Source: a virus. Taken from it: a stretch of DNA of 64,000 bases. Both the position numbers and the translations under genes were made by a program. The DNA lies in the IMG/VR virus record IMGVR_UViG_3300029049_000007, positions 7,712 to 71,711 of that record, one strand, 5' to 3'. Shown here in pieces: positions 6,849 to 62,418 of this stretch. The notes under the pieces are model-generated. The model did not search any database and was not told the origin of the DNA. It saw only the letters and a program-made list of their open reading frames with translations. Position 1 is the first letter of the stretch. Every line of letters starts with the position of its first letter.

Positions 6849-9800
6849 TTAAGCTGCCTCCTTTGCTGCTCTGCGTATAATACTATAATCTTTAATCCAC
6901 CAGTCGTAAGTATCTGGAATATCTTCCCATCCACTATCTGTTTTGCGCCGTCTTGGTTCTTTTTTACAATCTTTAATGTAGAGGATATCACCGTCTTTAA
7001 CTTCTAAATCTTGAAAACTGGTCTTACATCTCTTGTCTCTGAAATTCTTTTTCTTATGAATCTTCATTTCTGAAACTTTTCCATTCTTGATGCAATAAGC
7101 TTCAAATTTGGGCGAATATTTCATATCTAAATTCATAACACAAACCGTTCTATATCCATCGTTTAACGATTCATCGGTATAATCTATGTATCCAAGAACT
7201 TCATATTGGAACTGAGCAATAAATTCAGAAGGAAATTCTTCTTTCGAAACATTAGAACATAGCGCCTTTATTAACCCAAGAACATTAAAAACCATCCATC
7301 TTTTTGCGCTTTTATTTCCTTTTGGCGTTACGTCAGTCGCATACCTTCTAAGATTTATTTTGTCTAAACCTAACTGTGGAACATCTGCTTTCGAAATTGT
7401 CTTTCTGTCTATCCACTTATCATAGATGTCTAAACATTGAAGAATATATTTGATGGAACCATACTGCTTAAAGTAATTGATTTTTACTAATTTTCTAAAT
7501 ACTGATGAATTTATCTTTGTTCCTTTTATTGCTGCATAAATATCAATGATATCTTTTCTCGAAGATTGAGAAATTTCCATCATAGATTCTACGGCTTTAT
7601 CTCCGATACTTTTAACGCTGGATAAATTAGGATATATAATTTTTTCTTTATCATCCACCGTAAACTTTGTGTTATCTTTGCCGTATTCGTAGGTTCCCAT
7701 TTTATAACCAAAAACTGTCATAGCTTCACGGGTTAACTCGGCAACTTTATTTTTGTCTCCTTTTCCCTGATAGTGATTAAGCGTTACCTCATAAAATACC
7801 GAAGTATGATTTGCTTTCATCCATGCTTCATAAAGACTATCATTCGCCATTGCTAAAGCATGAGGGGCATTAAAACTATATCTCGCCGAATCCTTAATTA
7901 CCTTATATACGGGCTCAAAGTTATCAAGATTACCAATATTTTTAAGCCAATGCTCTCGAAGAGTATCCTCTACATGTTGTAAAGCTTCTCCTTTCAGTTT
8001 CTTTTTGCTGATTTTCTTTATCGTGTCATAACTGTCTTTCATTTCGATTCCAAGCCACGAAAAAATCTTCATTACCGCTTCCTGATAAAGCATATAATGG
8101 AAACAATCTTCCAGTAATTCGTCGATCGCCGGTTCTCCATTTGTGTATTCCACCCTATCAAGAAAACCATTAATTAAGGACTTAAATCCCGGCCTGATTC
8201 CTGCAATAAATGCCGCCAATTCCTTTATATTTTTCGGCTTAAACTTCATGACTTTTTTAGTTGTAGACGCTTTCTCGCACTGATTTAAGCAACAGGTTGC
8301 TCCAATCTCGTACATCCTCCAGGTCTTTTCGTCCTCAGTTACCATTTTTCTTAATTCTGTAACCGAAGGAACTTCGCGCCCAATCGCCGCATAAAGTTTA
8401 TGTATAATACCTACGACATCTACGATTAAGAAATCGTCTTTTACATAGCCGTATTTATCAAGTAAATTCCCTTCAATATTTGCAACAATGGTTGTCTTCC
8501 CAGTGCTTTCAGAATGACATCGAATGAGTCCTATTTCATATCGAATATCCCCATAGCCCGGAACATCTTCTTCACCCTCAACACCATTGAACAGAGCAAA
8601 ACCGCAAGCATGAACCTTCGCCTGTTCGATGATCTCCTGATATGATTTACTCTCATTAAACAGTTTCAAATGGTGCTTGTCTGTAATGTAGTCTTCGATT
8701 TCTATGAGATCTCTATCTTCTTCCTCTGCGTTTTTGAGAGCTTCATTGTACCTGTCAATACTTTTTGTGATTTCATTTGCAACTGAAGGCTCAATTCCGT
8801 TTACTCCGGCATAGAGTTTGAACCCGTTTTTCTCCTTCAATCTACCGACGGCAAGCAACGGATAACAACCATGTTCTCCGCATAATTCTTTTCCCGCCAA
8901 AACAAATGGTTCTTGTGATTGGCAATTAATATCAATATCTGGCATTTGATGGGAATTTAGGATTCTATCCTTTGTTACAAACCTCTCTGGATAAATAGGA
9001 ACTTCTGATTCAAATCTATCCATAGTCGTAAACCCAAGTAACTTACTCGAATAATAAGAACTTGCACTTCCTCTTGAGGTTGTAGTTATGTGTCCTCCGT
9101 ACTTATTAACCGCCAAATCAATAAGTTCGTAGTTGTCTAAGAAATAATCAGCCGTTCCGCTTCCGTCTATCTCAGAATACTCATAAAGCATTCCTTCTTT
9201 TCTGTCTTCCGTTCTGTGTTCGAAGTCTTCTTCATTATATTTCTTGTTCAGCAAATCAAACAGAATTTTTGACCTTTCTTCATATGACTTCCCTTTATAT
9301 TTTTCAAGAATTGGTATCTTAAATTTGGTATTGTATTCTAATTCCTCACAGCCTTCATTGAATACATGCGTATTCATCATTGCATATATAATTTCTTCTG
9401 GAGGAATAACCCCCTGTTCTGTCATTCTTTCAAAAATTTCTGTTCCAGTCGGGAAATCCATATACCAGCCGTCTTCCTCGGGATATCGAATTCCTTTTCT
9501 CTTTAAAAGGTTATCTCTTTTAATCCTATCTTCTTCACTGATATAGTGAGTATCCAAACCAATAATTGTTTTAATTCCGGCTGACTGAGAAAGCTCGTAG
9601 ATAATACTGTTGATTTTCTTCTGTTCGTCTGTATTGTTTGCCTGATACTCGAGAAAAAAGCTGCTTCCAAAATGTTTCGCAACTCTATACCAAATTTCGG
9701 TTGCATCCTCATATTTCCACCCAGCAATGCAGGCAGATGTAATATAAACGTCATCTTCGTCTAGCTCAAAAAGCATATTTAAGTCGATTCGCGGCTTATA

Positions 9801-17030: not shown

Positions 17031-19427
17031 TTACGCTGCATCCTCAAGTTTCTCTTCTTTGTATGTCATATAGTTGTTTAAACTATTAAACATCATATTA
17101 TAATCTTCTGTATTTACCCCGGAAAATTTTACGTTTGTGCCGTAATTTTCAACGAGATTCTTAAACCATTCAATTGAAACGGCTTCATCCATTTCCAGTT
17201 CGTATGATTTAGCAACAATCTTCGTTAATGCCGGAATATTCTCTGCATCAAATATTCTTGAGTTATTATCCACTTCGGCGCTCCAATCATTTAGTGCAGA
17301 TGAGTACAGTTCCATATCGGAGATATCTTCTTCTGAGTATTTATTACCGGAAATAAATTCCTGAATGGCTTTATCCGAAGAATCATTCAATCCTTTTACG
17401 AACATTAAGCTTCCAACAGCGGCTCTTATTTTATTCATGTCTCCCGAAATCGCATTTTCCATAAGATTTGTTGAGCAGAAATCCTCCACATAATCGTCAA
17501 TTACGCTATTCGTCTCAAAAGATTCAACTCCTTCGGAAACTTCTATTCCTAAGAATTCATTCATCAATGATTCAATGTGTTCTAATTTCTTTCTAACTGC
17601 CGCTCTTCCTTTTGTTCCTGCGCTATAGTCAATGTCTTCTGTTGTGACTCCATCGACTTTTCTGTTATGTAACTCTTCTTTATACGCAACCAAAAATTCT
17701 ACAAACTTCTCATCTTCGGTTTCTGTGCGGCCAATCGCTGTCTTTGTAAACCGATCAAATAAAGTGAACCACACAAATGAATTCTTTGAATCAAATAAAT
17801 CACTCACTTCGTCAGTCACAACATCATAAAGCCTGTCAATAACTTCCTCTAAAGCATCAAACTGTTTTACCTTTGCATTTTCCTTCAGGTAAGTACAATT
17901 CACATCGTTGCTCTTGTTCCACTTATCTAAAAAGTTGATTGACATAATAGACTCAATAATTGTCCTGTCTAATTTGCCGTTATAAAATTCGGACAGACTA
18001 TAGTTTCCTTTTTCCTTGAAAAATGGCTTAACTGAAAGTGTTTTAACAATCTTGCTAAAATCTTCTCCGAGATATGTAATTCCTTTCTGGGCAACACTCA
18101 TAGGTTTTGACTGATTATATCTTCTGATATCATACTCAATCTGTTCCTTTGTGCAGTTAAGATTGAGCGTTATCTGAAGGTTATAATTCTTAAATCTTTC
18201 CTGTAATTCTTCTGGTAACTGAGAAAACTTCTTATTTCTAATATCGAATTCGCAATTAATCTTCTTCGGAATACCGTAACTATCGCAGACGATGTTTCCG
18301 TTTTCATCCTTCTCATTTGCCTGATATTCAATCATGCTCCGTTCTACATTTCTACTTATTTTAAATCCATCATTTAAGTATGAATAAATAGCTCCAACAA
18401 GTCTCTGTTTCCCATCTAAGAGCCATTTATAAGCAACGCCGTTAATGTATTGTTCTGCCAGCAGTAATGGAGGGATGGCATTTCCCTGTAATAAATCTGA
18501 TATTAAATTACTCTGCATAATTTTCGACCACTGACCTGACGCTCTCTGTAATGGATGATTGTCTAAAATACTCCGAGCATCTAACTGTAAACAGATTGAG
18601 ATTACAGATAATGCAATCATTTTTGTTTTTTCGCTTGTGCTTGTTGCTGGGGTTGCTGCTGCTTTGGGATTCTTCATAGATGGTTCTCCTTTAATAACTA
18701 CTTCTTTTTTTACTGTTTTATTTTTTGAACTGATTAAGCTTCTTGTCTTCTCAATAGATGTCATATCATTACAAAGCTCATAATACCTGCTTAATGTAAT
18801 TCCGAGTTTTTGCGCTATCTCTTCAAACGTGTATCCTTCAGACTTTAATTTCGCAATTTCCATCTGCATTGGACTTAATTTGCTGAAATATTCTGCTACT
18901 GCTGGACTACTCCATTCTCCGCAACTATCTAAGAATTCATCTTCTGCTGATGCTCCTCCTTCGATAAGTTCATATGGATTAGATTCCTCGTCATCCTCAG
19001 TGTAATCCAGAGATTCAATGAGTTTGTCTCCTCCGTTTTTGATGGCATTTCTCCGCGTCTGTTCCTGCTTAATCTTGTTCGACAAACAAGTATACAGATA
19101 TCCTTTAAAATCTCTTTTCCCGTCATAAGTATCCAGAATTTGTACGAATACTTCATTCGCAATTGAGTAGCAGTCATCTCGATCTGAGAAATTGGAAAAT
19201 CTATTCCGCTCAATAATCTTATCGACCATCTTTCTGATTTTCGCAGCATCGTTCCCATAATACTCTTCAATGATTTTTTCTTTATTCACTTTTACCTCTC
19301 TTTCGGACACTAACACTTTCAAGTGTCGCAGTACCCCGGCAAGGTTTTCCATATAACGGACGCATTTCACACCCGAAATATGGCTTAACCATGCGGTTTT
19401 AGGAAAGTCAACTAAGTAGTTTTTCAA
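17031..19427 (-). CDS. sigma-70 family (region 2 plus region 4) domain fused to DUF262/ParB-like (GmrSD N-terminal type) domain
   Basis: 798 aa with a TTG start. N-terminal about 230 aa carry sigma region 2.x (YLYTCLSNKIKQEQTRRNA) and a region 4 HTH (LSPMQMEIAKLKSEGYTFEEIAQKLGITLSRYYEL). A low-complexity linker follows. Then AIPPLLLAEQYINGVAYKWLLDGKQRLVGAI resembles the DUF262 IP...DGQQR core. Confidence 0.55.
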   Translation of the reverse strand: MKNYLVDFPKTAWLSHISGVKCVRYMENLAGVLRHLKVLVSEREVKVNKEKIIEEYYGNDAAKIRKMVDKIIERNRFSNFSDRDDCYSIANEVFVQILDTYDGKRDFKGYLYTCLSNKIKQEQTRRNAIKNGGDKLIESLDYTEDDEESNPYELIEGGASAEDEFLDSCGEWSSPAVAEYFSKLSPMQMEIAKLKSEGYTFEEIAQKLGITLSRYYELCNDMTSIEKTRSLISSKNKTVKKEVVIKGEPSMKNPKAAATPATSTSEKTKMIALSVISICLQLDARSILDNHPLQRASGQWSKIMQSNLISDLLQGNAIPPLLLAEQYINGVAYKWLLDGKQRLVGAIYSYLNDGFKISRNVERSMIEYQANEKDENGNIVCDSYGIPKKINCEFDIRNKKFSQLPEELQERFKNYNLQITLNLNCTKEQIEYDIRRYNQSKPMSVAQKGITYLGEDFSKIVKTLSVKPFFKEKGNYSLSEFYNGKLDRTIIESIMSINFLDKWNKSNDVNCTYLKENAKVKQFDALEEVIDRLYDVVTDEVSDLFDSKNSFVWFTLFDRFTKTAIGRTETEDEKFVEFLVAYKEELHNRKVDGVTTEDIDYSAGTKGRAAVRKKLEHIESLMNEFLGIEVSEGVESFETNSVIDDYVEDFCSTNLMENAISGDMNKIRAAVGSLMFVKGLNDSSDKAIQEFISGNKYSEEDISDMELYSSALNDWSAEVDNNSRIFDAENIPALTKIVAKSYELEMDEAVSIEWFKNLVENYGTNVKFSGVNTEDYNMMFNSLNNYMTYKEEKLEDAA

Positions 19428-19569: not shown

Positions 19570-19680
19570 ACGTAGGGGTATGCTCCAACATATCCTTACA
19601 ATCTTTGTTCTTTTTTGGACAAAGCATTTGCGTTTCCGCCCCGAGGTGCTCCAACACCATTTAAGGGGCGGTTTTTTATT
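19570..19680 (+). ncRNA. candidate small RNA of about 110 nt ending in an intrinsic terminator
   Basis: Runs from the promoter above to a stem CCGCCCC/GGGGCGG (19636-19671) with a nested GGTG...CACC hairpin and a T6 run. Internal repeat GCTCCAACA occurs twice. Only a poor 37-codon ORF with no usable RBS. Confidence 0.3.
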
Positions 19681-19770
19681 TTCCTTGTCATAATATACCA
19701 TGTATTATGTTAAAGTGTCAAGTATTTTTTCGAACCTCTGTTCGTTTTTTCGCTTCCATCTTTTTCCAGC

Positions 19771-51740: not shown

Positions 51741-52041
51741 ATACAGCAATCAGGGACAGACTATTTCTATTAACTTAAACGACGATTACCAGATTTATGC
51801 AATGGCTAGATGGGACAAGAAAAGCTCTTTATATATTGCAGAAATGTATATTTCCAAAAAAGAGACAAATTCATTTCTACATTTCATCAATAGCTTTACT
51901 ATCTCATGCGAAAGGATGGATTTATTTATGACGTTGACTAAAGAAATATCAGAAATGTATTCCAACACAGGGTTTTCTGACGAAATTTCGGAATACGAAA
52001 ACATTCTAAATGCAATTACGACAGGCTATAAAGACCATTAA
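51733..52041 (+). CDS. hypothetical protein
   Basis: 102 aa. Overlaps its neighbours by a few nt in an operon-like arrangement. Confidence 0.4.
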   Translation: MLRYSNQGQTISINLNDDYQIYAMARWDKKSSLYIAEMYISKKETNSFLHFINSFTISCERMDLFMTLTKEISEMYSNTGFSDEISEYENILNAITTGYKDH

Positions 52042-52277
52042 TGTGCGAATTTTGTAAACAGCCAAAATGTCCGCCGGAATGTCCTAATTACTCTCACTCG
52101 AGATTTTACGAGCAATGTCATTATTGTGAGGGAGATATTTTGCCGGGCATGGAATACATAGAAACCTATGCGGGAAATTACTACCATTATAATTGCTTCA
52201 AGTGTTTAACAACAGATGAAATCTTAAAAGAAACCGACTTAGAAGTTAAAACCGCAGAACACTACGACTGGAGGTAG
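52041..52277 (+). CDS. small Cys-rich zinc-ribbon protein
   Basis: 78 aa with CEFCKQPKCPPEC...CHYCEG...CFKC. Confidence 0.4.
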   Translation: MCEFCKQPKCPPECPNYSHSRFYEQCHYCEGDILPGMEYIETYAGNYYHYNCFKCLTTDEILKETDLEVKTAEHYDWR

Positions 52278-52323: not shown

Positions 52324-55038
52324 ATGCTTTATGATGTTAACTTAGGTATTAGAGATTACTTTACTTACACAGATGCAATGCTCAACAATAGCTTATTCAG
52401 TTATTTTCTTCAAAAAAATGGCATGAAAGTGTATAAAGGCGAATCCACTAGAGACGTTATTTGTTTAGATTTTGATTTCGGAAGTAGGTCGTATGAAGAC
52501 GAGAAAAAACGACTGAATAAAATGATTAAGAATGCAGCAAACGATACCGAAAGAAAAAAGCTTGAAAAAGTTGTTGCAAAGATTGAAGGAAACAAAGAAA
52601 AATATGCTCCTAAAAAACGCGGAGAAATTCGAGAACAGTTCTATGAAGAAGGAGTTTCAATCACATATACTACCAAGAAAAAAGACGGAAGTATTAAAAG
52701 TTCTCAGACAATCCGCTACCGCATGCTCTATCGTACAAGCGCAAAAGCAAAATCTGGGCAGGTAATTTTCATTAATGAAAAACTTTACGATAAGGCTTAC
52801 GACTGGCTCACTATGGGGCTTGGAGATAAAATGCCAAAAAATGACGCGAAAATTGTTGAAATGTCCGCTTATGCCCCACTCACAACATCTACAATCGTAG
52901 ATACAATTCATATCCCCGTTGAAGATATTTTAATATTAAAAGATCAGGATTCATTCTTCAAAACAATCGCAAACGTGGTTTACGCCGAAGAATACGAAAA
53001 GAAATCCGGCAAAAAGACTGTTAAATCCAAAAAATGTCTCGTGAAGCAGGAAGAACGTGAGGTAAAAAATACCTTATGGGACGGAATGGGTATTATTGAA
53101 TCTTCTTACCTCCCACAATCTATTAATGGCATGGCCCTATTAAGACAGCACATGTTCAAAATGTGTGGGTTTAGAGGGCATATTCAGAAGTTTTTCGTGG
53201 ATTGGTGCTATGAAAACGGTCATGATTACTATACATATCAAGTTCCAGACATGTTTGGCAACATGCATTATGTGAAGGACATCAAGATTATTACGACTGA
53301 TAATGCAATAAAGTGGCGCAAGTTCATTGATATTATGGGTGGAACCCCAGTCAAGGCGTATGATTACTGGATGGGTAGAATCAAGGCTGATGGTGAAATC
53401 TGGGGAATTGTAAAAACTGACCACAAAAGTAAGCTTGGGGATTTACAGCAGATGAGCTATCAGATGATTAACACTCTTCCTTGCAACCGGGATGATGTAA
53501 GGAACATCGCTGATAATAGTATTTCATATGTTGAAAAGATCAAAACCGATGGAGCCGAATTTGAAAAGTTCTTGCGAAAAAACGCAAATGCGGTAAATCA
53601 CTACGAGATGCTTGCTGATTTGTACTCTCATAATCCTGATTTTGCAGATAGCACATGGTTTAGGCACGAGAAAAAGAAAATTATTTCTGAATATGTATTT
53701 AGGCTTAGGACAGGGAAAATAACTGTCAACGGAGACAATCTTACTTTGTGCGGAAACCCTTACGCTCTCCTGCTTCATTCTGTTGGTGAGGATTATAGAG
53801 AAGACCCTAGTTTTTCTGATGAGGATGGAGCAATACAGTGTTATACTACGAGATTTAGAGACGACGAGTATTTATGTGCGTTTCGTAACCCGCATAATGC
53901 CCCGAATAATATATGTCACCTACATAATGTTTACAGTGATGTTATGGAGAGATACTTCCCATTTAGCGAAAATATTATTGCAATAAATAATATCTGTACG
54001 GATGTACAGGATCGAGCGAATGGATGCGACTATGATTCTGATTTTTTCTTTGTAACAAATGAAGAAACTATGGTTAAATACGCCAAAATCGCGTACAAGA
54101 ATTATCCTACTATTGTAAATGACATTCACGAAAGTGGGATTACATACGCAAATACCAAGAAGGCATACGCCGAAATGGATAATAAATTTGCAAAATCGCA
54201 GCTTGGAATTGGATTATCCAGTAATTTAGCCCAGCTCGCAATGACATATTACTGGACGGAACTTAATAAAGAGAACCCAAATAAAGAATTACTTAAAGAA
54301 CTTTATGATAACTTCGTTATTCTCAGTGTGTTAGCACAGTTAGTAATCGATAGCTGCAAGAGGACGTTCGAAATCGACGCTATGGAGGAGATTGACAGAA
54401 TTCAGCGAATGGACTGTATGTGCAAAACCGCAGAAATAGAACTCGAAGATGGCTCTACCACAACTGTAAGACGAGATTTTCCTCATTTTATGAAATATAC
54501 TAGGAATGTTCCTACCACCAAAAATGGGAAAGAACTGCCCCAAGGAACTATTTCGAATAACAGAAAAAAACTCAACGACAGAATCAATGAAGACCTTGTT
54601 TGCCCAATGAACTGGCTGCAAGAATGGCTCGACAAAATACAGAACTTGGTTTCAAGAGGAACCATTCCGACAAATGACTTCTTTATTAAAATGAAGGGAA
54701 CGGCGAACAACCGCCAAATGTCTAAAATACGAGGTATTGTCGAGGAATATGACCGCATGATTAAATCGTATTACGCAAAATACGGCGGAACGGAGGAATA
54801 TATTGAAAAACTAATAGAAGAATCTGATTTTGTAGTAGAACAGCTAAGAAAAGTCAAAATCGGTAATGCAGTAACTATAAATCGTCTTATCGAGGTAGCC
54901 CTTGGCCTTAATGCTCCGGCAAAAAACAAGAAGCTGGATTATAAGCAAGGAACTAAGTACACTCGAAAGATGCTGAATCTACTCTACAAAATGGATAGAG
55001 AAAAATTTCTCGCAAATTTTGTTCGAAAAACTACTTAG
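52324..55038 (+). CDS. 904-aa protein of unknown function; candidate non-canonical single-subunit (YonO-like, double-psi beta-barrel) RNA polymerase - speculative
   Basis: No Walker motifs. ...CAFRNPHNAPNNICHLHNV...IAINNICTDVQDRANGCDYDSDFFFV shows an acidic D-x-D-x-D loop (DYDSD), preceded by an R-N-P-H segment that loosely parallels the msRNAP beta-prime NADFDGD / NRAPTLH arrangement. Size is similar to YonO. Not verifiable without profile or structure comparison. Confidence 0.3.
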   Translation: MLYDVNLGIRDYFTYTDAMLNNSLFSYFLQKNGMKVYKGESTRDVICLDFDFGSRSYEDEKKRLNKMIKNAANDTERKKLEKVVAKIEGNKEKYAPKKRGEIREQFYEEGVSITYTTKKKDGSIKSSQTIRYRMLYRTSAKAKSGQVIFINEKLYDKAYDWLTMGLGDKMPKNDAKIVEMSAYAPLTTSTIVDTIHIPVEDILILKDQDSFFKTIANVVYAEEYEKKSGKKTVKSKKCLVKQEEREVKNTLWDGMGIIESSYLPQSINGMALLRQHMFKMCGFRGHIQKFFVDWCYENGHDYYTYQVPDMFGNMHYVKDIKIITTDNAIKWRKFIDIMGGTPVKAYDYWMGRIKADGEIWGIVKTDHKSKLGDLQQMSYQMINTLPCNRDDVRNIADNSISYVEKIKTDGAEFEKFLRKNANAVNHYEMLADLYSHNPDFADSTWFRHEKKKIISEYVFRLRTGKITVNGDNLTLCGNPYALLLHSVGEDYREDPSFSDEDGAIQCYTTRFRDDEYLCAFRNPHNAPNNICHLHNVYSDVMERYFPFSENIIAINNICTDVQDRANGCDYDSDFFFVTNEETMVKYAKIAYKNYPTIVNDIHESGITYANTKKAYAEMDNKFAKSQLGIGLSSNLAQLAMTYYWTELNKENPNKELLKELYDNFVILSVLAQLVIDSCKRTFEIDAMEEIDRIQRMDCMCKTAEIELEDGSTTTVRRDFPHFMKYTRNVPTTKNGKELPQGTISNNRKKLNDRINEDLVCPMNWLQEWLDKIQNLVSRGTIPTNDFFIKMKGTANNRQMSKIRGIVEEYDRMIKSYYAKYGGTEEYIEKLIEESDFVVEQLRKVKIGNAVTINRLIEVALGLNAPAKNKKLDYKQGTKYTRKMLNLLYKMDREKFLANFVRKTT

Positions 55039-55181
55039 TTGGCTCAAAAAAACAGGCTCTAAACCCGCATAAACACTGGGTTTCGTAAAATGCAAATGCG
55101 TCCGTTATATGGAAGGGGTACGAGCTTGGCGGCTCTCCCTCCAATTTGCGAATGTACAAGGATTAATCGGAGGATTTATTT

Positions 55182-55796
55182 ATGGTATTAAAAGAAGCTT
55201 ATAGATACATGAACCATTTAAACTCACTCATCACTGAAGCAGAACTTCACCTTTACGAACCTGCTTTTACAACAAAGAAAAAGGAAACCCACAAAAAAAG
55301 TGCGGCAATTTCCTCTGAAAAAGATGATGTCATTGAAAACGTCAATTTATATGATGTTCCGTTTTCTGTTGTTGATGTGATTGACTTTATTGTTGAAGCA
55401 CTTAATCAGAAGTCCCTTCTTTCTCATGCAATTACAGAAGCAAAAAAGAATACTCCTATTGACATCAATGATAGTATTTCTATCAACAAAACAACTCAGG
55501 AATTTATCAATATTTTAAATATGCTAGGTAAAAAGAAGTCTAGCGAAAGAACTGTTAAGCAGGTAGGATACACTTTTAACGCCGAAGGAAACCAAGTTCC
55601 TTACAAATACGATGTAGATGAAGTAACTTCAATTAACTATGACAGGAAAGTTGTAAAGAAACTGGCGAAGAAACTGTCTTCAGAGTGTGATGCGGTTTCA
55701 ACAAATTTAGACGCAATCGAAATTGAGACAATTGTAGACTATTCTCCTATTTGGGATTTATCTGACTCATTAGAAGATATCTTGACAGAAGAATAG
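55182..55796 (+). CDS. hypothetical protein
   Basis: 204 aa with a GGAGGA RBS. Two tandem hairpins follow (GCCGCC...GGCGG and AACC-TTCG-GGTT) at 55803-55840. Confidence 0.45.
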   Translation: MVLKEAYRYMNHLNSLITEAELHLYEPAFTTKKKETHKKSAAISSEKDDVIENVNLYDVPFSVVDVIDFIVEALNQKSLLSHAITEAKKNTPIDINDSISINKTTQEFINILNMLGKKKSSERTVKQVGYTFNAEGNQVPYKYDVDEVTSINYDRKVVKKLAKKLSSECDAVSTNLDAIEIETIVDYSPIWDLSDSLEDILTEE

Positions 55797-56278
55797 CCAT
55801 TATGCCGCCGTTTGGCGGTTAACCTTCGGGTTATAAAACGAGAACTGAAACTGATTTGTAATGGTCGGTCGGTTCAGTCGCAGATGAACTATGAGGCTGC
55901 GGAGCAATCATGCTAAAATGATATTCACTGCTTGCAGTGTCTTACAAAAAACAAGATTTCAAATAATGGGTTTTATTATTCAATAAAAATTGGTTTAGAA
56001 AACAGCGAGTAAAAGATGACTTGTCATTTGCTTCGTTATTCGTCCCTCCTGATATTTCCCCATCTTGTTCTATTTATATCTCTATATCTCTTTCTTTCTA
56101 AAATCGCTTCGTCCAATAGTTATCCTGAGCAGGATAAACATTTCTTAAAGTATAAAGGATGTACTTATATTATTTTAATTATACATGGAAAATATTTTGA
56201 CGTACATAAAAAATATTGATTGAGATTACGATGATTTTTCAGTTTTCATTTTATAGCCCGAAAAGCATTTATCTATTT

Positions 56279-56361
56279 CCCGTCGTAAAGCACTATGGAC
56301 ATGCGCCAGTCTGTAAAACTGGTGACTTCGGTCTGGCTTGGTTCGATTCCAAGAGGCGGGA
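56279..56361 (+). tRNA. tRNA-Tyr (anticodon GTA), class II with long variable arm - manual fold
   Basis: Anticodon arm CCAGT-CTGTAAA-ACTGG, variable arm GAC-TTCG-GTC, T-arm CTTGG-TTCGATT-CCAAG, acceptor CCCGTCG/AGGCGGG with U8-A9. The D-arm is not cleanly foldable by eye. No encoded CCA. Confidence 0.45.
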
Positions 56362-56364
56362 TTT

Positions 56365-56447
56365 TGCAGGGTAGCAAAGTTCGGTATTGCGCGGTCATAC
56401 AGCAAATCATTAGACCGAGACGAAGGTTCAAATCCTTCCTCTGCAAT
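56365..56447 (+). tRNA. tRNA-like gene with canonical acceptor, D and T arms but an enlarged 16-nt anticodon loop (possible anticodon CAU)
   Basis: Acceptor TGCAGGG/CTCTGCA, U8-A9, D-arm GCAA-AGTTCGGTA-TTGC, T-arm GAAGG-TTCAAAT-CCTTC. Anticodon stem CGGTC/GACCG encloses ATACAGCAAATCATTA. Confidence 0.35.
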
Positions 56448-56652: not shown

Positions 56653-57285
56653 TTGGATTATACTCTATTTTTTGATACCAATGCTCTTCTGAATCTTCAA
56701 GAACAAGCGTTTAAAGAGAAGTTTGTTATTGCTCAAAAAACTCTTGAAGAAATTGAAAGCATTAAATCTTCTTTTAATAAAGATGGAGAAGTAAAATATA
56801 AAGCTCGTAAGGTTGCTCATCTGCTAAACGACCGAGAGTCAGATTATGAAGTAATTCCTTACAGTCCAGAAATTCAAAACATTATTCAATTACATTATTT
56901 AGAAGAAACACCTGACAATATTATCCTCGCAAGTGCGTATTGCTATGATAATGCAGTAAATAAAGTCATTGTTGTTTCCGATGATTTAAACTGTAAATTC
57001 ATCAGCAAAAACATCTTTGATTTAACAACAAAAGGTATTGACGATATCAATATCGCAAAGAAAATTGAAAATTATAAAGGATATAAAGACGTTATTCTCT
57101 CTGATGAGGAAATGTCTTATTTTTACACTCATCTTTCGGAGAATATTTTTGAATGTATCTATGGAGAGTATTTAATTATCCGAAAATCTGATGGAGAAAT
57201 CGTGGACTACCGCAAGTGGAATGGGGCAGAATTATGCCGCGCTATCATATACACGCGTAAACAGCAATTTTCTTGGGGAAAATAA
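56653..57285 (+). CDS. PIN-domain protein (N-terminal half of a YlaK/PhoH2-type PIN-PhoH pair)
   Basis: TTG start. Acidic residues at PIN-like positions (LFFDTNALL, EEIESIK, VVSDDLN). Ends at a TAA immediately after the heptamer G_GGA_AAA. Confidence 0.55.
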   Translation: MDYTLFFDTNALLNLQEQAFKEKFVIAQKTLEEIESIKSSFNKDGEVKYKARKVAHLLNDRESDYEVIPYSPEIQNIIQLHYLEETPDNIILASAYCYDNAVNKVIVVSDDLNCKFISKNIFDLTTKGIDDINIAKKIENYKGYKDVILSDEEMSYFYTHLSENIFECIYGEYLIIRKSDGEIVDYRKWNGAELCRAIIYTRKQQFSWGK

Positions 57286-57893
57286 AGCCAATTAATCCAG
57301 AACAAATTTTAGGTTTTGATATGCTACAAGACGATTCTAAAACTATAAAAATACTGGCAGGAAAAGCCGGTAGCGGTAAAGATGCTATTATGATTGCAAA
57401 TGCAATAAAGATGATTGAAGACGGAAAATATGACAAGTTAATCTATGTTAGAAATCCCATTTCGGTACGAGATGTTAGCGAAATTGGTTTTCTTCCGGGT
57501 TCAGAGGAGGAAAAATTAAGCGTGTTCTCTCGCGCTCTCGCAGACCACTTAGGCGGGATCGAGGGGCTAGAAATGCTCATGTCTTCAGGTAAGGTAGAAA
57601 TAGAGCATCTTGGTTTCATCCGAGGAAGAGATTTAAAGAATGCAATCGTTTATTGCAGTGAAGCAGAAAATCTTACAAAAGACCATGTTCAGCTTTTAAT
57701 AAGTAGAATCGGAGAAGGTTCGTCTTTATGGATGAACGGAGATTATAAGCAAGTGGATAGTCCAACTTTCCGAATGAACAATGGATTATTATCTGCAATT
57801 CAAAAACTTGCAGGAAATGAATCATTTGGATATGTTCAACTTCAAAAGACTGAAAGAAGTAAAACTGCCGCATTAGCGGATTTATTAGATTAA
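57273..57893 (+). CDS. phoH: PhoH-like ATPase (C-terminal half of PIN-PhoH)
   Basis: Walker A GKAGSGKD. PhoH-like core (IYVRNPISV...GFLPGSEEEKL...HLGFIRGRDL). The start overlaps the PIN ORF in the -1 frame. Confidence 0.7.
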   Translation: MGKIKPINPEQILGFDMLQDDSKTIKILAGKAGSGKDAIMIANAIKMIEDGKYDKLIYVRNPISVRDVSEIGFLPGSEEEKLSVFSRALADHLGGIEGLEMLMSSGKVEIEHLGFIRGRDLKNAIVYCSEAENLTKDHVQLLISRIGEGSSLWMNGDYKQVDSPTFRMNNGLLSAIQKLAGNESFGYVQLQKTERSKTAALADLLD

Positions 57894-57920: not shown

Positions 57921-58577
57921 ATGGATACAATTTTAATTCCACCATCAGTATTTGACAGCGAAAGTGAATCTTTTTTCCCAGACCCAAAGGATTATACCTA
58001 TTGGGAAGCAAGAGAGTCTCGCATCTTCTATATTGATTGGGAATTAGATGAAATTTATAACGCCGTAGAATTATCAAAAATCATTATTCAGATGAATGTA
58101 AAAGAAAAAAACATCCCAGATAAAAACCTAAAGCCTATTTATCTTTTTATTCACTCTTATGGAGGAGATTTAGACCAGTGTCATACCCTTATAGATATTA
58201 TCTGTAGCAGTAGAATTCCTATTGTTACTGTCGCAATGGGTGTTGCTATGTCTGCAGGTTTTATGATTTTTCTGGCAGGACATAAGAGATATGCGTTCAA
58301 ACATTCAAACTTAATGGTACATAAAGGACAAGCGTCTATCTCCGGAACACCAGACCAGATTGAGCAGGCACAGAAGAATTATAAACGTCAGTTGAACGAT
58401 ATGAAGGAATTTATCCTTGCAAGAACAGAGATTCAAGAAAAAGTTTTTAATAGGAATGCAAATAAAGACTGGTTTCTTACAATTGAAGAACTTGAAAAAT
58501 ATAAAGTTGTAGACAAAATTATTGATAATTTTACAGATATCTTTGCAGATACTTGTACACTGGAGGAGATTTTTTAA
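57921..58577 (+). CDS. ClpP-family (S14) serine protease
   Basis: GVAMSAGFMIF aligns with ClpP GQAASMGAFLL around the catalytic Ser. Downstream His (HKGQ). Confidence 0.65.
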   Translation: MDTILIPPSVFDSESESFFPDPKDYTYWEARESRIFYIDWELDEIYNAVELSKIIIQMNVKEKNIPDKNLKPIYLFIHSYGGDLDQCHTLIDIICSSRIPIVTVAMGVAMSAGFMIFLAGHKRYAFKHSNLMVHKGQASISGTPDQIEQAQKNYKRQLNDMKEFILARTEIQEKVFNRNANKDWFLTIEELEKYKVVDKIIDNFTDIFADTCTLEEIF

Positions 58578-58791: not shown

Positions 58792-60015
58792 ATGGTAGAT
58801 TTACATGTGCTTCCCGGCGAAAATGCCGAAAAATATCTTTGGAGAATTGGACAGGCAAAGGATTCTGGCGAACTCGCGCTCGGCTGGAACGAGATTTCAA
58901 AATTGATGAATGAAAAATTCATTGATGATGAAATCGACTATAAGGGCAGCAGCGCATGGCGAAAAGATTATCGAACAACAAAAAAGTTTTTTGATGCTGG
59001 TGTTTTCGACAATTCCGACAAAGATAAAGAATTAAAAGACAAGAAACTCGAATTAGAAAAAGAACGAAAAAAATTGCAGACAGAAAAAATCGAGTATAAT
59101 CGCTGGATTAGAGAAGATGCTCGAGATGAGATGATTTTAGAAAGTATCTGCAACGCTATGAAGACTCTTCCCTCTATTTCACGCCCGCGTCCTATATTTA
59201 TTCCTCATAATCTTTCACAAGAGAAGGAATATCTTTTATGTATTGCTGACGCACATTATGGAGTAGAGTTTACATTGCCAGATTTATTGGGCAACAACAT
59301 AAACGCATATAGTCCAGAGATATTTGAAAATAGAATGTGGAAACTTCTTGATGAAGTTATTTCTATCATCAGAAAGGAAGACATCTCTCATCTGAACGTA
59401 TGGGAACTCGGAGATGGAATTGAAGGAATTTTAAGACTTACATCTCAGCTAATGAAGCTTAGATATGGAATTATTGACTCTTCTCTTCGTTATGCAAATT
59501 TCTTGGCAAGCTGGCTACTCGAACTTAGCAAATATGTAGAAATATCTTTTCAGATGGTAAAAGACTCGAATCACTGCCAGTTAAGAATCTGTAATGCAAA
59601 GAAAAACGCGTTTCCAGAGGAAAATATGTCTAAAGTCGTTTTGGCGTTTTTAAAAGAACGCCTTAAAGATGTTGACAGAATCACAATTTCAGAAAATCCG
59701 ACTGGTTTTACATTTGATAATTTTTGCGGCTCATATACTCTCGGCAATCACGGAGAAATGAAGAATTTCGCAAGTTCTGTAAATGATTTTGAAAGACTAT
59801 ATAATCAGCAGGTAGACTATGTTATCTGCGGACATGTACATCATTTCAAGGCGGAAGAAGTCGGAAAAAATTCTGAAGTAATCGCATGTCGTTCTATTAT
59901 GGGTGGAGACCCGTATGGCGCATCTCTAAATAGAGTTTCTAATGCAGGCGCATCGTTATTCGTTTTCGAAAATGGAAAAGGAAAAACCTGCGAATACACA
60001 ATTAAATTAGATTAG
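58792..60015 (+). CDS. metallophosphoesterase with 140-aa N-terminal extension
   Basis: CIADAHYG, ELGDGIEG, GNHGE and CGHVHHF match the calcineurin-like motif order. Confidence 0.6.
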   Translation: MVDLHVLPGENAEKYLWRIGQAKDSGELALGWNEISKLMNEKFIDDEIDYKGSSAWRKDYRTTKKFFDAGVFDNSDKDKELKDKKLELEKERKKLQTEKIEYNRWIREDARDEMILESICNAMKTLPSISRPRPIFIPHNLSQEKEYLLCIADAHYGVEFTLPDLLGNNINAYSPEIFENRMWKLLDEVISIIRKEDISHLNVWELGDGIEGILRLTSQLMKLRYGIIDSSLRYANFLASWLLELSKYVEISFQMVKDSNHCQLRICNAKKNAFPEENMSKVVLAFLKERLKDVDRITISENPTGFTFDNFCGSYTLGNHGEMKNFASSVNDFERLYNQQVDYVICGHVHHFKAEEVGKNSEVIACRSIMGGDPYGASLNRVSNAGASLFVFENGKGKTCEYTIKLD

Positions 60016-60085: not shown

Positions 60086-60376
60086 ATGGTAAGAAAAAAT
60101 GAATTTATTACAGCAATCGTAAAAAAAGTTGACGGATTAACAAAGAAAGATACAGCAATTATCTTAGATGCTATTTCTGAGACAATTACAGAGTGTCTTG
60201 TAGCTGGCGGCAAAGGAGAAAAGATTAATCTTCCGGGACTTGGTTCATTAGAAGTAAGAGAAAGAGCTGGACGAGAAGGAAGAAATCCTCAGACTGGCGA
60301 AAAGATTGATATTCCTGCAAAGCTTTATGTGAAGTTTAAAGCATCTAAGGCTTTTAAAGACGCTATCGCCGAATAA
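60086..60376 (+). CDS. hup: HU/IHF-family DNA-binding protein
   Basis: 96 aa. MVRKNEFITAIVKK...GLGSLEVRERAGREGRNPQTGEKIDIPA is the arm motif. Confidence 0.9.
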   Translation: MVRKNEFITAIVKKVDGLTKKDTAIILDAISETITECLVAGGKGEKINLPGLGSLEVRERAGREGRNPQTGEKIDIPAKLYVKFKASKAFKDAIAE

Positions 60377-60868: not shown

Positions 60869-60892
60869 TATAGAGCGGAAGCCGCTCTTTAT
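60869..60892 (+). terminator. intrinsic terminator
   Basis: GAGCGG-AAG-CCGCTC followed by TTTATT. Confidence 0.5.
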
Positions 60893-60964
60893 TGGCTGTT
60901 GGCGAAACGGAAACGCAACGGAATTTGACTCCGTGAATTCAGGGTTCGAATCCCTGGCGGCCAG
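60893..60964 (+). tRNA. tRNA-Gln (anticodon UUG)
   Basis: Complete manual cloverleaf: acceptor TGGCTGT/GCGGCCA, D-arm GCG-AAACGGAAA-CGC, anticodon arm ACGGA-ATTTGAC-TCCGT, variable GAATT, T-arm CAGGG-TTCGAAT-CCCTG, discriminator G. No encoded CCA. Confidence 0.7.
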
Positions 60965-61116
60965 TATTTAATTGATAGTGATTTATAGAAATACAGAATG
61001 TTTGCATTCAGGCAAAGGCACATGAGCGCCCTCTTGCCTTATAGACCACTATCACTAGCCCTTGGCTATCTTCGTGATGGTTGAGGGCATTTTTTGGCTT
61101 TTTTACGAGAAAGGAT

Positions 61117-62418
61117 GTGATTCTTCTGGCAACTACACAAACAAAAACTCGAGGCAAAGGAAAGAATCCTCCTGTTGCGGAAGTTCGTGCCGAAAATGAA
61201 AAATTAAAAGCTGAATTAGAACGTATTAAAAATAGTGCCTATTGCCATATGTGTGACAAACACAGGTCGAGAATATATTTTTACGAAAATTATGATCCTC
61301 GGAGTAAAGGAAAAGTCTCTCCTATTTGCATCGACTGTGCAAGAAAAATTGCCATGCGAACAGACGATAAAGGGATTGAGCATTCTCCAACAAAAGAGTC
61401 CCTAATTGAAGCGTTAAGATATGTAGATAAACCATTTTTCGAATCACTATACAATTCCAGTATTGAAGAATCAAAAAATGAATTTTCTGGACAGACACCG
61501 AAAACATTTTACGGTTGTTACATGAAGAATATTCAAATGCCGCAATATCGGACGTACAGATTTAAAGATTCTGACATATTTCAAATACCGGATTCTTCTC
61601 CAGAAAAGGAAATTGACGAGCAAGAAATGATTGCTTCTAAAGAGGGATTAGATGTGTATGATAGTTTTCAGAAAAACAAAGAAGATGTTATCCGATTATT
61701 AGACTACGACCCTTTTGAGCAAGAATCTGTAAAAGACCAACCACTCTTATACTCTCAACTTCTTGGAATGTTAGATGCTGACGGAGAAGGAAATGACGAC
61801 ATGATGCGAATTGCTTCTTGCGTGTCTATCGTTAGAAGCTTCTTACACCAGTCTAAAATCGACGATGCAGTAACGAAAATGATGATAGACCCGCTAAGAA
61901 TAAAGGATAATTCTGCGAGTATAAAATCACTGGAATCCAGTAAAGGTGACATTACTAGAAATATCACAAATTTAGCGGCAGAAAGCTGCATCTCATTGAA
62001 AAATAATAAAAATGCAAAAAAAGGCGAAAATACTTGGACTGGCAAAACAAAGAAAATGAAAAACCTGAATCTTCGAGAAAGCGAAGTAAATGGGTTTGAT
62101 GTTTGGACTTGTCGGGGTATGCAACAGGTTATGGAGATGAGCGACGCATCTATTATGAAGCAGCTTAATCTTGATGAGTCTGAATGGTCTGATATTGTTG
62201 CCGAACAGCGAGTGTTGCTTAGAAAAACTCAAGAAAATTGTCGGCAATACGAAGAAATATCGCGAATTTTGCTTAGAGAGAATATTGATTTAAAGGATTT
62301 ATTAAGAGAACATGATTTGTTAGAAGAAGATAATCTTGTTGACTTAGATAAACTATATTCTTGTTTCTCTGGCGAAAATGAGGAGGCTGTCTCAAATGAC
62401 AATCAATCCGAAAGCTGA
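61117..62418 (+). CDS. zinc-ribbon-containing protein upstream of terL; possible small terminase subunit/DNA-packaging protein
   Basis: The track TTG start at 61081 lies inside a terminator hairpin, so GTG 61117 (or ATG 61249) is preferred. Basic N-terminus, coiled coil, then CHMCDKH...CIDCARK. Immediately precedes and overlaps terL. Confidence 0.3.
   Translation: MILLATTQTKTRGKGKNPPVAEVRAENEKLKAELERIKNSAYCHMCDKHRSRIYFYENYDPRSKGKVSPICIDCARKIAMRTDDKGIEHSPTKESLIEALRYVDKPFFESLYNSSIEESKNEFSGQTPKTFYGCYMKNIQMPQYRTYRFKDSDIFQIPDSSPEKEIDEQEMIASKEGLDVYDSFQKNKEDVIRLLDYDPFEQESVKDQPLLYSQLLGMLDADGEGNDDMMRIASCVSIVRSFLHQSKIDDAVTKMMIDPLRIKDNSASIKSLESSKGDITRNITNLAAESCISLKNNKNAKKGENTWTGKTKKMKNLNLRESEVNGFDVWTCRGMQQVMEMSDASIMKQLNLDESEWSDIVAEQRVLLRKTQENCRQYEEISRILLRENIDLKDLLREHDLLEEDNLVDLDKLYSCFSGENEEAVSNDNQSES

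Follow-up and report, generated by a model that had tools for sequence, protein, structure and literature searches.

A YonO-family two-barrel RNA polymerase gene heads a putative late operon in an SPbeta-like phage of human-gut Lachnospiraceae and is followed by a promoter-like element

YonO of the Bacillus subtilis prophage SPbeta is a processive single-subunit, two-barrel, DNA-dependent RNA polymerase (RNAP) (Forrest et al. 2017, PMC5467207). It transcribes 37 SPbeta late genes as one operon whose start site lies downstream of yonO-yonN (PMC5467207; PMC8270828), and its promoter determinants were reported as unknown in 2017 (PMC5467207). YonO-like proteins in Firmicutes had been noted in 2010, including two from gut Clostridia then misnamed Bacteroides, by Ruprich-Robert & Thuriaux, who also described eight residues (D; R/K, K; R-x-P; D-x-D-x-D) invariant across all two-barrel RNA polymerases and represented in QDE-1 by D709, R738, K743, R962, P964, D1007, D1009 and D1011 (PMC2919709). 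The superfamily signature has since been stated as DxDxD (PMC7824862). Here we analyzed 64,000 nucleotides (nt) of the IMG/VR virus record IMGVR_UViG_3300029049_000007 (positions 7,712 to 71,711; hereafter the window) and describe a plus-strand gene, 52324..55038, that encodes a member of the YonO family, together with a conserved promoter-like element that follows it.

The open reading frame (ORF) list gives exactly these ends, with an ATG start and a product of 904 amino acids (aa), in agreement with the initial annotation. It is the biggest plus-strand ORF in the window, and its product contains neither a Walker-A pattern nor a Pfam NTPase (nucleoside triphosphatase) domain, which bears out the earlier description of the largest rightward protein, devoid of NTPase motifs. 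The accompanying proposal of a YonO/double-psi beta-barrel (DPBB) RNA polymerase is supported by PHROG membership, hhalign, the eight universal residues, Foldseek and synteny. Among PHROGs there was a single strong match, phrog_8308 ('unknown function'; E 5.5e-96, residues 69-899). YonO, taken from the SPbeta record AF020713 (61356-63875), scores 1220 bits on phrog_8308 over its full length and is therefore the archetype of the PHROG hit by the window protein. The two proteins are also close in size (904 aa vs 839), as had been remarked earlier. For profile comparison and modelling we used 81 sequences, trimmed from an alignment of 121 homologs whose identity to the query is 28-69%. Aligned with YonO by hhalign, this profile gave 99.1% probability and an E value of 5.9e-19 over 515 columns, which span both barrels plus the helix after the catalytic triad and place LLRQHMFK opposite VRLPWVK, FRNPHNAPNN opposite LRSPHLFREH, NGCDYDSD opposite LQFDNDGD and IDSCKR opposite IDFAKT.

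Sequence methods alone fail to connect this polymerase family with solved RNAPs. A Pfam search of the 904-aa protein with E values up to 10 returned two spurious sub-threshold matches only, and neither the single protein nor a 43-sequence profile matched anything relevant among the PDB sequences. The family itself is large: the identical sequence of the window protein heads a cluster with 336 member sequences, more than 2,166 clusters at 90% identity were matched among the candidates scored, and an exhaustive search found at least 1,222 representatives at 50% clustering, 609 of them with E < 1e-30. A tblastn search of phage genomes hit nine records, none of which covers 80% of the query. One of these is a homolog from Enterocloster phage PMBT24 (WDQ45559.1; L001, 5263-7758) that is 23% identical and aligns FRSP...NGCDFDGD with FRNP...NGCDYDSD of the window protein. 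Its annotation, 'RNA-dependent RNA polymerase', is doubtful because the PMBT24 protein, too, has no match to Pfam RdRP (the RNA-dependent RNA polymerase family) and is a member of the YonO PHROG. The label is probably misleading and reflects a remote structural or profile match.

All eight universal residues are present in the window protein, as D253, R274, K279, R521, P523, D569, D571 and D573, with the same identities and in the same order as in QDE-1. The R-to-K (+5) and R-x-P spacings are also those of QDE-1, and the distance from R to the triad is 48 residues compared with 45. As all eight are invariant in the 121 homologs, down to 28% identity, the active site appears to be under purifying selection. 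Three of them, D253 (53080-53082), R274 (53143-53145) and K279 (53158-53160), lie in WDGMG...LLRQHMFK within the predicted first, beta-subunit-like barrel (DPBB-A, approximately residues 245-337, 53056..53334, boundaries inferred from secondary structure). This region is rich in beta-strand in the AlphaFold2 model and also holds the invariant K330, within TTDNAIKWRKF. The second, beta-prime-like barrel (DPBB-B, approximately residues 465-580, 53716..54063, boundaries likewise inferred) contains FRNPHNAPNN (residues 520-529, 53881-53910), which carries R521 and P523, and ICTDVQDRANGCDYDSDFFFV (residues 557-577, 53992-54054), both verified by translation. Within the latter, DYDSD (54028-54042) provides the predicted Mg2+-binding aspartate triad D569, D571 and D573. 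The homologous triad is essential in YonO, where a 3D>3N mutant is inactive (PMC5467207). The five invariant residues R521, P523, D569, D571 and D573 substantiate the beta-prime-like layout recognized in the initial annotation and show that its motifs did not arise by chance. The modelled barrels are followed by two long helices (H612-647 and H654-676; 54157..54363) that end in VIDSCKR, with the invariant D676 and K679 aligned with TIDFAKT of YonO, and that probably form a bridge-helix-like element. Further residues invariant in the alignment are G254, Q380, D619, G630 and P720.

The metal loop departs from the canonical DxDGD, which reads DNDGD in YonO and DxDSD here. The replacement of the usual Gly by Ser had been noticed before and turns out to be the family norm: position 572 is S in 102 of the 121 sequences, G in 7, T in 7, A in 2, L in 2 and V in 1. 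The broader superfamily signature DxDxD is retained, so DYDSD marks a clade variant and not an exclusion from the superfamily. Judged from the alignment, the 'universal' Gly of the metal loop would be dispensable, being mostly Ser across this family.

AlphaFold2 produced a model with a mean predicted local distance difference test (pLDDT) of 93.1 and a predicted template modelling score (pTM) of 0.90. Foldseek produced 21 PDB matches at E <= 0.001, every one a single-chain two-barrel RNA polymerase. RDR2 of maize and Arabidopsis leads the list together with QDE-1 (E 2.7e-13 to 3e-8, about 900 alignment columns), gp66 of phi14:2, a phage of the crAss-like kind, is also found (E 5e-5), and the sub-threshold tail consists of beta-prime/Rpb1. 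The model thus predicts two double-psi beta-barrels on one polypeptide and an overall likeness to QDE-1 and RDR2. The right-hand palm, fingers and thumb of T7-like single-subunit RNAPs were not found by Foldseek, PolD is absent from its significant results, and neither a primase-polymerase (PrimPol)/archaeo-eukaryotic primase (AEP) fold nor a virion-protein fold occurs among the Foldseek, Pfam or PHROG matches. The two outcomes named earlier as speaking against a polymerase, an unrelated fold and a model devoid of a DPBB, were both looked for in this way and neither occurred.

Compared with other two-barrel enzymes, the window protein is predicted to work in fold like QDE-1 and RDR2, yet it lies outside Pfam RdRP (PF05183), shares about 11% identity with them and is encoded by a phage with DNA genes; its template is presumed to be DNA by homology to YonO. 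There is no detectable sequence similarity to the non-virion RNAP of the Thermus phages (P23-45 gp64, P74-26 gp62) or to their virion RNAP gp96 (PMC10770324). Gp96, which is joined to a tape-measure protein, is a packaged virion component, whereas nothing in the window protein suggests virion packaging. The phi14:2 enzyme gp66 is likewise packaged, has 2,166 aa and transcribes early genes; the window protein has 904 aa and is placed ahead of late genes. Unlike the beta/beta-prime (Rpb2/Rpb1) subunits of multisubunit RNAPs, it carries both barrels on one chain, leaves most multisubunit domains unmatched and resembles them in sequence at motifs only.

The genomic setting matches that of yonO. 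A leftward module encodes a 1,152-aa DNA polymerase, a DnaG-type primase, a DnaB helicase, an integrase and a sigma-like protein. The rightward module runs from a DnaD-like gene through small ORFs and a LIM-like zinc-finger ORF to the polymerase, and on through a 204-aa ORF, transfer RNA (tRNA) genes, a PIN-PhoH gene and clpP. After ClpP come a YonJ homolog (58792..60015, +; Pfam YonJ_N and YonJ_CC on an identical product, phrog_284), an HU-like DNA-binding protein homologous to YonN (60086..60376, +; Bac_DNA_binding, 48% identity to YonN, E 3e-29) and a YonG homolog (61081..62418, +; Pfam YonG_N). Near-identical human-gut metagenome contigs of 92-178 kb (L003-L005) reach beyond the window and continue with the terminase large subunit (phrog_2 and phrog_15503, as SPbeta YonF), the portal (phrog_2739, as SPbeta YonE) and YonD-like and YonB-like genes; these contigs carry Pfam YonG_N, YonD_N and YonB matches. 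The SPbeta late operon is ordered yonO, yonN, yonK, yonJ ... yonG, yonF, yonE, yonD, yonB, and the genes 3' of the polymerase are collinear with this YonO-dependent operon. The window protein hence resembles YonO in PHROG 8308 membership, catalytic residues and size, in standing at the head of an SPbeta-like late operon and in having an HU-like neighbour. Unlike in SPbeta, the YonJ and YonN homologs are separated from the polymerase by an insertion of the 204-aa gene, tRNAs, PIN-PhoH and ClpP, and the host is a gut Lachnospiraceae and not a Bacillus.

A scan of species-representative genomes with a 12-sequence alignment identified 28 loci (L006-L033) with homologs 53-65% identical, whereas scanning with the single protein matched nothing. 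They come mostly from metagenome-assembled genomes of Lachnospiraceae or other Clostridia, and two records are labelled as Bacilli and Bacteroidales metagenome-assembled genomes. Isolates with integrated copies include Eisenbergiella tayi DSM 26961, E. porci, Lachnospiraceae bacterium CE91-St56, whose record is a complete 7.3-Mb chromosome, and Ruminococcus sp. AM36-2AA. Homologs about 30% identical occur in Paenibacillus, Psychrobacillus, Lysinibacillus and Virgibacillus. We assign the window virus to the SPbeta-like temperate phages, with human-gut Lachnospiraceae as its hosts.

Homology to YonO, the two-barrel fold, the eight catalytic residues and the collinearity with the late operon all emerge from the computations. 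We consider it very probable that the protein is a single-chain two-barrel, DNA-dependent YonO-family RNAP of an SPbeta-like phage that transcribes the late operon; by analogy with YonO we infer its DNA dependence and its independence of the host RNAP. According to this model, the host polymerase would make the enzyme after infection or induction, and the enzyme would then transcribe the late packaging and structural operon, which begins directly after the polymerase gene, and would do so independently of host RNAP. On the second barrel, D569, D571 and D573, with R521 and P523 beside them, would bind the catalytic Mg2+; contacts to the second metal, the nucleoside triphosphate and the RNA 3' end would be made by D253, R274 and K279 of the first.

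As the promoter determinants of YonO were unknown according to the 2017 paper, we compared the non-coding DNA that follows the polymerase genes. Searching relatives with the non-coding region at 55.0-56.7 kb by blastn gave no matches, and we therefore turned to k-mer enrichment. Together with inspection this revealed a block 60-110 nt 3' of the polymerase stop codon in 27 of the 28 loci, on the coding strand in every case. The consensus of the block reads aaaattCGTCCnTAATATGGAGrGGAA, which can also be written as aaaattCGTCCnTAATAT followed by GGAGrGG. Clade-specific versions read CGTGTTTATTATGAGAGAG and AAAATCCGTTATATGAACAG, and the cores differ by clade as CGTCCnTAATATGG, CGTGTTTATTATGAG and AAAATCCGTTATATGAAC. 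The window version of the block is ATGCGTCCGTTATATGGAAGGGG. It belongs to a candidate late promoter, site A (55025..55124, +), supported by conservation 3' of the polymerase stop and by weight-matrix rank, and made up of a distal block GAAAAACTACTTAGTTG (55025-55041) that overlaps the stop codon, a middle block CTAAACCCGCAT (55059-55070) and the core ATGCGTCCGTTATATGGAA (55096-55114).

Since the instances had been picked by eye and curated by hand, we ran a leave-clade-out test with a position weight matrix (PWM). The post-polymerase site ranked first of 18,000-128,000 positions in 15 of the 28 loci and among the top 5 in 20. Site A of the window ranked first of 127,954 positions with a score of 26.2, compared with 17.1 for the next. 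That next-best match is a second copy on the minus strand, site B (19347..19425), which consists of an identical 19-mer (19347-19365), a similar middle block (19391-19402) and the identical 17-mer GAAAAACTACTTAGTTG (19409-19425), the exact repeats having been verified. Locus L015 contains three co-directional copies within 7 kb (12803, 17842, 19923), conserved from about -95 through TAATATGGAGGGA and diverging immediately after, each with a ribosome-binding site (RBS) and start codon 30-70 nt downstream. The conservation runs upstream and ends at an AT-rich hexamer and purine run, which looks promoter-like. T7-like promoters follow a comparable logic, with an AT-rich melting hexamer and then a purine-rich start. 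We tentatively propose, at a little short of an even chance, that the element is a promoter read directly by the YonO-like enzyme without a sigma factor. Initiation would then occur at the window core, and the core of site B would put the sigma-like gene under the same control; this part of the model is more speculative than the rest.

Two other readings of the element were rejected. RNAalifold gave -0.05 kcal/mol with no structure and no covariation, contrary to a structured RNA, and the copies are not arranged as packaging (pac) sites, those in the window facing in opposite directions 36 kb apart and those of L015 being three direct copies within 7 kb. In PMBT24 a weak motif-like CCGTCTAAAAATGAGGGAGA (L001, 8472; PWM score 9.1, not significant alone) falls in the gap before the HU, terminase and portal genes.

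Several observations weigh against this picture as a whole. Identity to YonO in the profile alignment is only about 19%, and Pfam and PDB searches at the sequence level detect nothing for the polymerase. The structure of the 904-aa protein is a prediction, the usual Gly of DxDGD is Ser, and the nearest solved structures, QDE-1 and RDR2, are RNA-dependent enzymes; because of the latter, the preference for a DNA template rests on homology to YonO and on the setting in a double-stranded DNA phage. As regards the element, the P_YonO region of SPbeta, which we located by the primers given in the supplement of the 2017 paper, differs from the window in having no significant motif match (best score 1.4, with 0.63 expected by chance); a visually similar TTTATGAGGG there is not significant and is not claimed. 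Most loci show one strong copy per 20 kb, so the repetition of the element within a genome is limited. Finally, the phage sigma-like protein could be the reader of the element instead.

That last possibility is the strongest competitor: the polymerase would be of the YonO family but would start elsewhere, while the host RNAP, with the phage sigma-like protein or with sigma-A, would read the element. The phage does encode a protein with an N-terminus like extracytoplasmic function (ECF) sigma factors (17031-19289, minus strand), and site B precedes this very gene, as would fit autoregulation. The element contains a CGTC, which we take to resemble ECF -10 boxes, and a TATAAT-like hexamer; many loci also show a (G)GTTT(C/T) box upstream, at a rather constant 14-15 nt, and the mapped P_YonO region of SPbeta lacks a significant match. 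However, the element is tied to the polymerase gene at a near-constant distance past the stop codon in 27 of 28 loci, and its sequence shifts clade by clade together with the polymerase. There is also no TTGACA-like -35 at 16-18 nt from the TAATAT hexamer, and strong conservation runs on past this hexamer into the purine-rich GGAGrGG, which is unusual for sigma-A promoters. We therefore regard reading by a sigma factor as unlikely, though worth serious consideration.

An RNA-dependent RNA polymerase that makes double-stranded or antisense RNA, for example in regulation or counter-defence, would agree with QDE-1 and plant RDR2 being the best structural matches and with the annotation of WDQ45559.1. 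But for YonO, the sole characterised family member, DNA dependence in vitro and transcription of DNA genes in vivo are documented (PMC5467207), and QDE-1 itself has DNA-dependent activity as well (PMC9508822). The gene moreover heads a double-stranded DNA phage late operon like yonO, and the PMBT24 protein does not match Pfam RdRP, which leaves this explanation very improbable. Little can also be said for a role in DNA replication, through primers or origin activation by transcription, in place of gene expression. The rightward module does include a gene for a DnaD-like loader, 900 nt upstream, and the two-barrel fold also occurs in the archaeal replicative PolD (PMC4996933), but the leftward module supplies the phage with a DnaG-type primase, a DnaB helicase and a large DNA polymerase of its own, PolD is missing from the significant fold matches, and synteny with the SPbeta late operon points to transcription; we hold such a role to be most improbable. 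A catalytically dead relic or a protein co-opted for structure, as the replaced Gly might suggest, is a negligible prospect given eight catalytic residues invariant down to 28% identity and a Gly position at which family members freely carry S, T, G, A, L or V.

The sigma-like gene next to site B is listed as an ORF of 798 aa, 17031-19427 (-), from TTG 19427. Its N-terminus matches Pfam Sigma70_ECF (29.9 bits, cutoff 21.1), and a GmrSD_N/DUF262-like domain scores 32.1 bits, just below the cutoff of 33.2, in what would be an unusual fusion. An in-frame GTG, at 19289 and with the RBS GAGAGG, follows 62 nt downstream of site B. As the conserved element sits between the two codons, the true start is probably GTG 19289 and not the listed TTG. 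Upstream of site B, a stretch of about 500 nt free of ORFs contains a near-consensus sigma-70-type promoter (TTGACA, 18 nt, TATATT; 19690-19722, -) followed by a GC-rich hairpin (GCCCC...GGGGC; 19625-19670, -). The region 19625-19722 may be a small RNA or an early promoter for the host RNAP.

Directly 5' of the polymerase, 52041-52277 (+) encodes a 78-aa Cys-rich protein (Pfam LIM, 26.1 bits, cutoff 22.9; phrog_4331), which could be a polymerase accessory factor; an ORF 38% identical holds the same position in L024. We considered and rejected its identity with SPbeta yonP, as there is no similarity and YonP, at the same position in SPbeta, is not Cys-rich. The first gene downstream of site A encodes the 204-aa protein (55182..55796, +); it is called in the identical gut contigs and has no Pfam or PHROG match. 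The next ~480 nt, up to the tRNAs (55797-56277, +), are without a convincing ORF and open with GC-rich hairpins (GCCGCCGTTTGGCGG...), and nothing in Rfam matches them at gathering score; in SPbeta, too, a non-coding RNA that is not annotated lies between P_YonO and yonK.

Three plus-strand tRNA genes lie within the putative late operon: tRNA-Tyr(GTA) (56278-56362), called by ARAGORN and below the Rfam gathering score, tRNA-Gln(TTG) (56364-56447), and a third with a long variable arm (60892-60965). For the last, ARAGORN reports a 4-base anticodon 'acag' and assigns no amino acid, while Rfam sees a normal tRNA (48.4 bits); a mis-call, an unusual anticodon loop and a suppressor are all conceivable. 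The PIN-PhoH fusion is one 412-aa ORF in L003-L005. In the window (56653-57893, +) two additional G's, in GGG/GGGG homopolymer runs 52 nt apart (near 57224 and 57276), break it into the frames 56653-57285 and 57273-57893. The split could be an assembly error in the window source or a genuine frameshifted allele. The ClpP-family protease gene inside the late module (57921-58577, +; Pfam CLP_protease, E 5.8e-25) probably encodes a prohead maturation protease, and SPbeta has no annotated ClpP equivalent at that position. For a 445-aa ORF with a TTG start no contig record was found, the gene being called with a different start.

The class and role of YonO-like enzymes are already established, and the window protein shows every feature of them that we tested except a strict DxDGD. 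What is new is so in degree: the size of the gut clade, DxDSD as its norm and a candidate promoter. No simpler relatives of cellular RNA polymerases are known than the YonO-type enzymes, of which only one has been characterised. The family is very large, with at least 1,222 clusters at 50% identity, and is frequent in Lachnospiraceae prophages of the human gut. A name can now be given to PHROG 8308 and its many 'hypothetical' members, and the label of the PMBT24 homolog probably needs correction. If the polymerase reads the element, the YonO family would have its first promoter consensus, and a two-barrel enzyme would be seen to follow a T7-like logic in which promoter and polymerase co-vary from clade to clade; site B would then imply a cascade from phage polymerase to sigma factor to redirected host polymerase. 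The candidate allows tests of promoter recognition by a minimal two-barrel polymerase, and the pair might serve as an orthogonal transcription system for gut Firmicutes.

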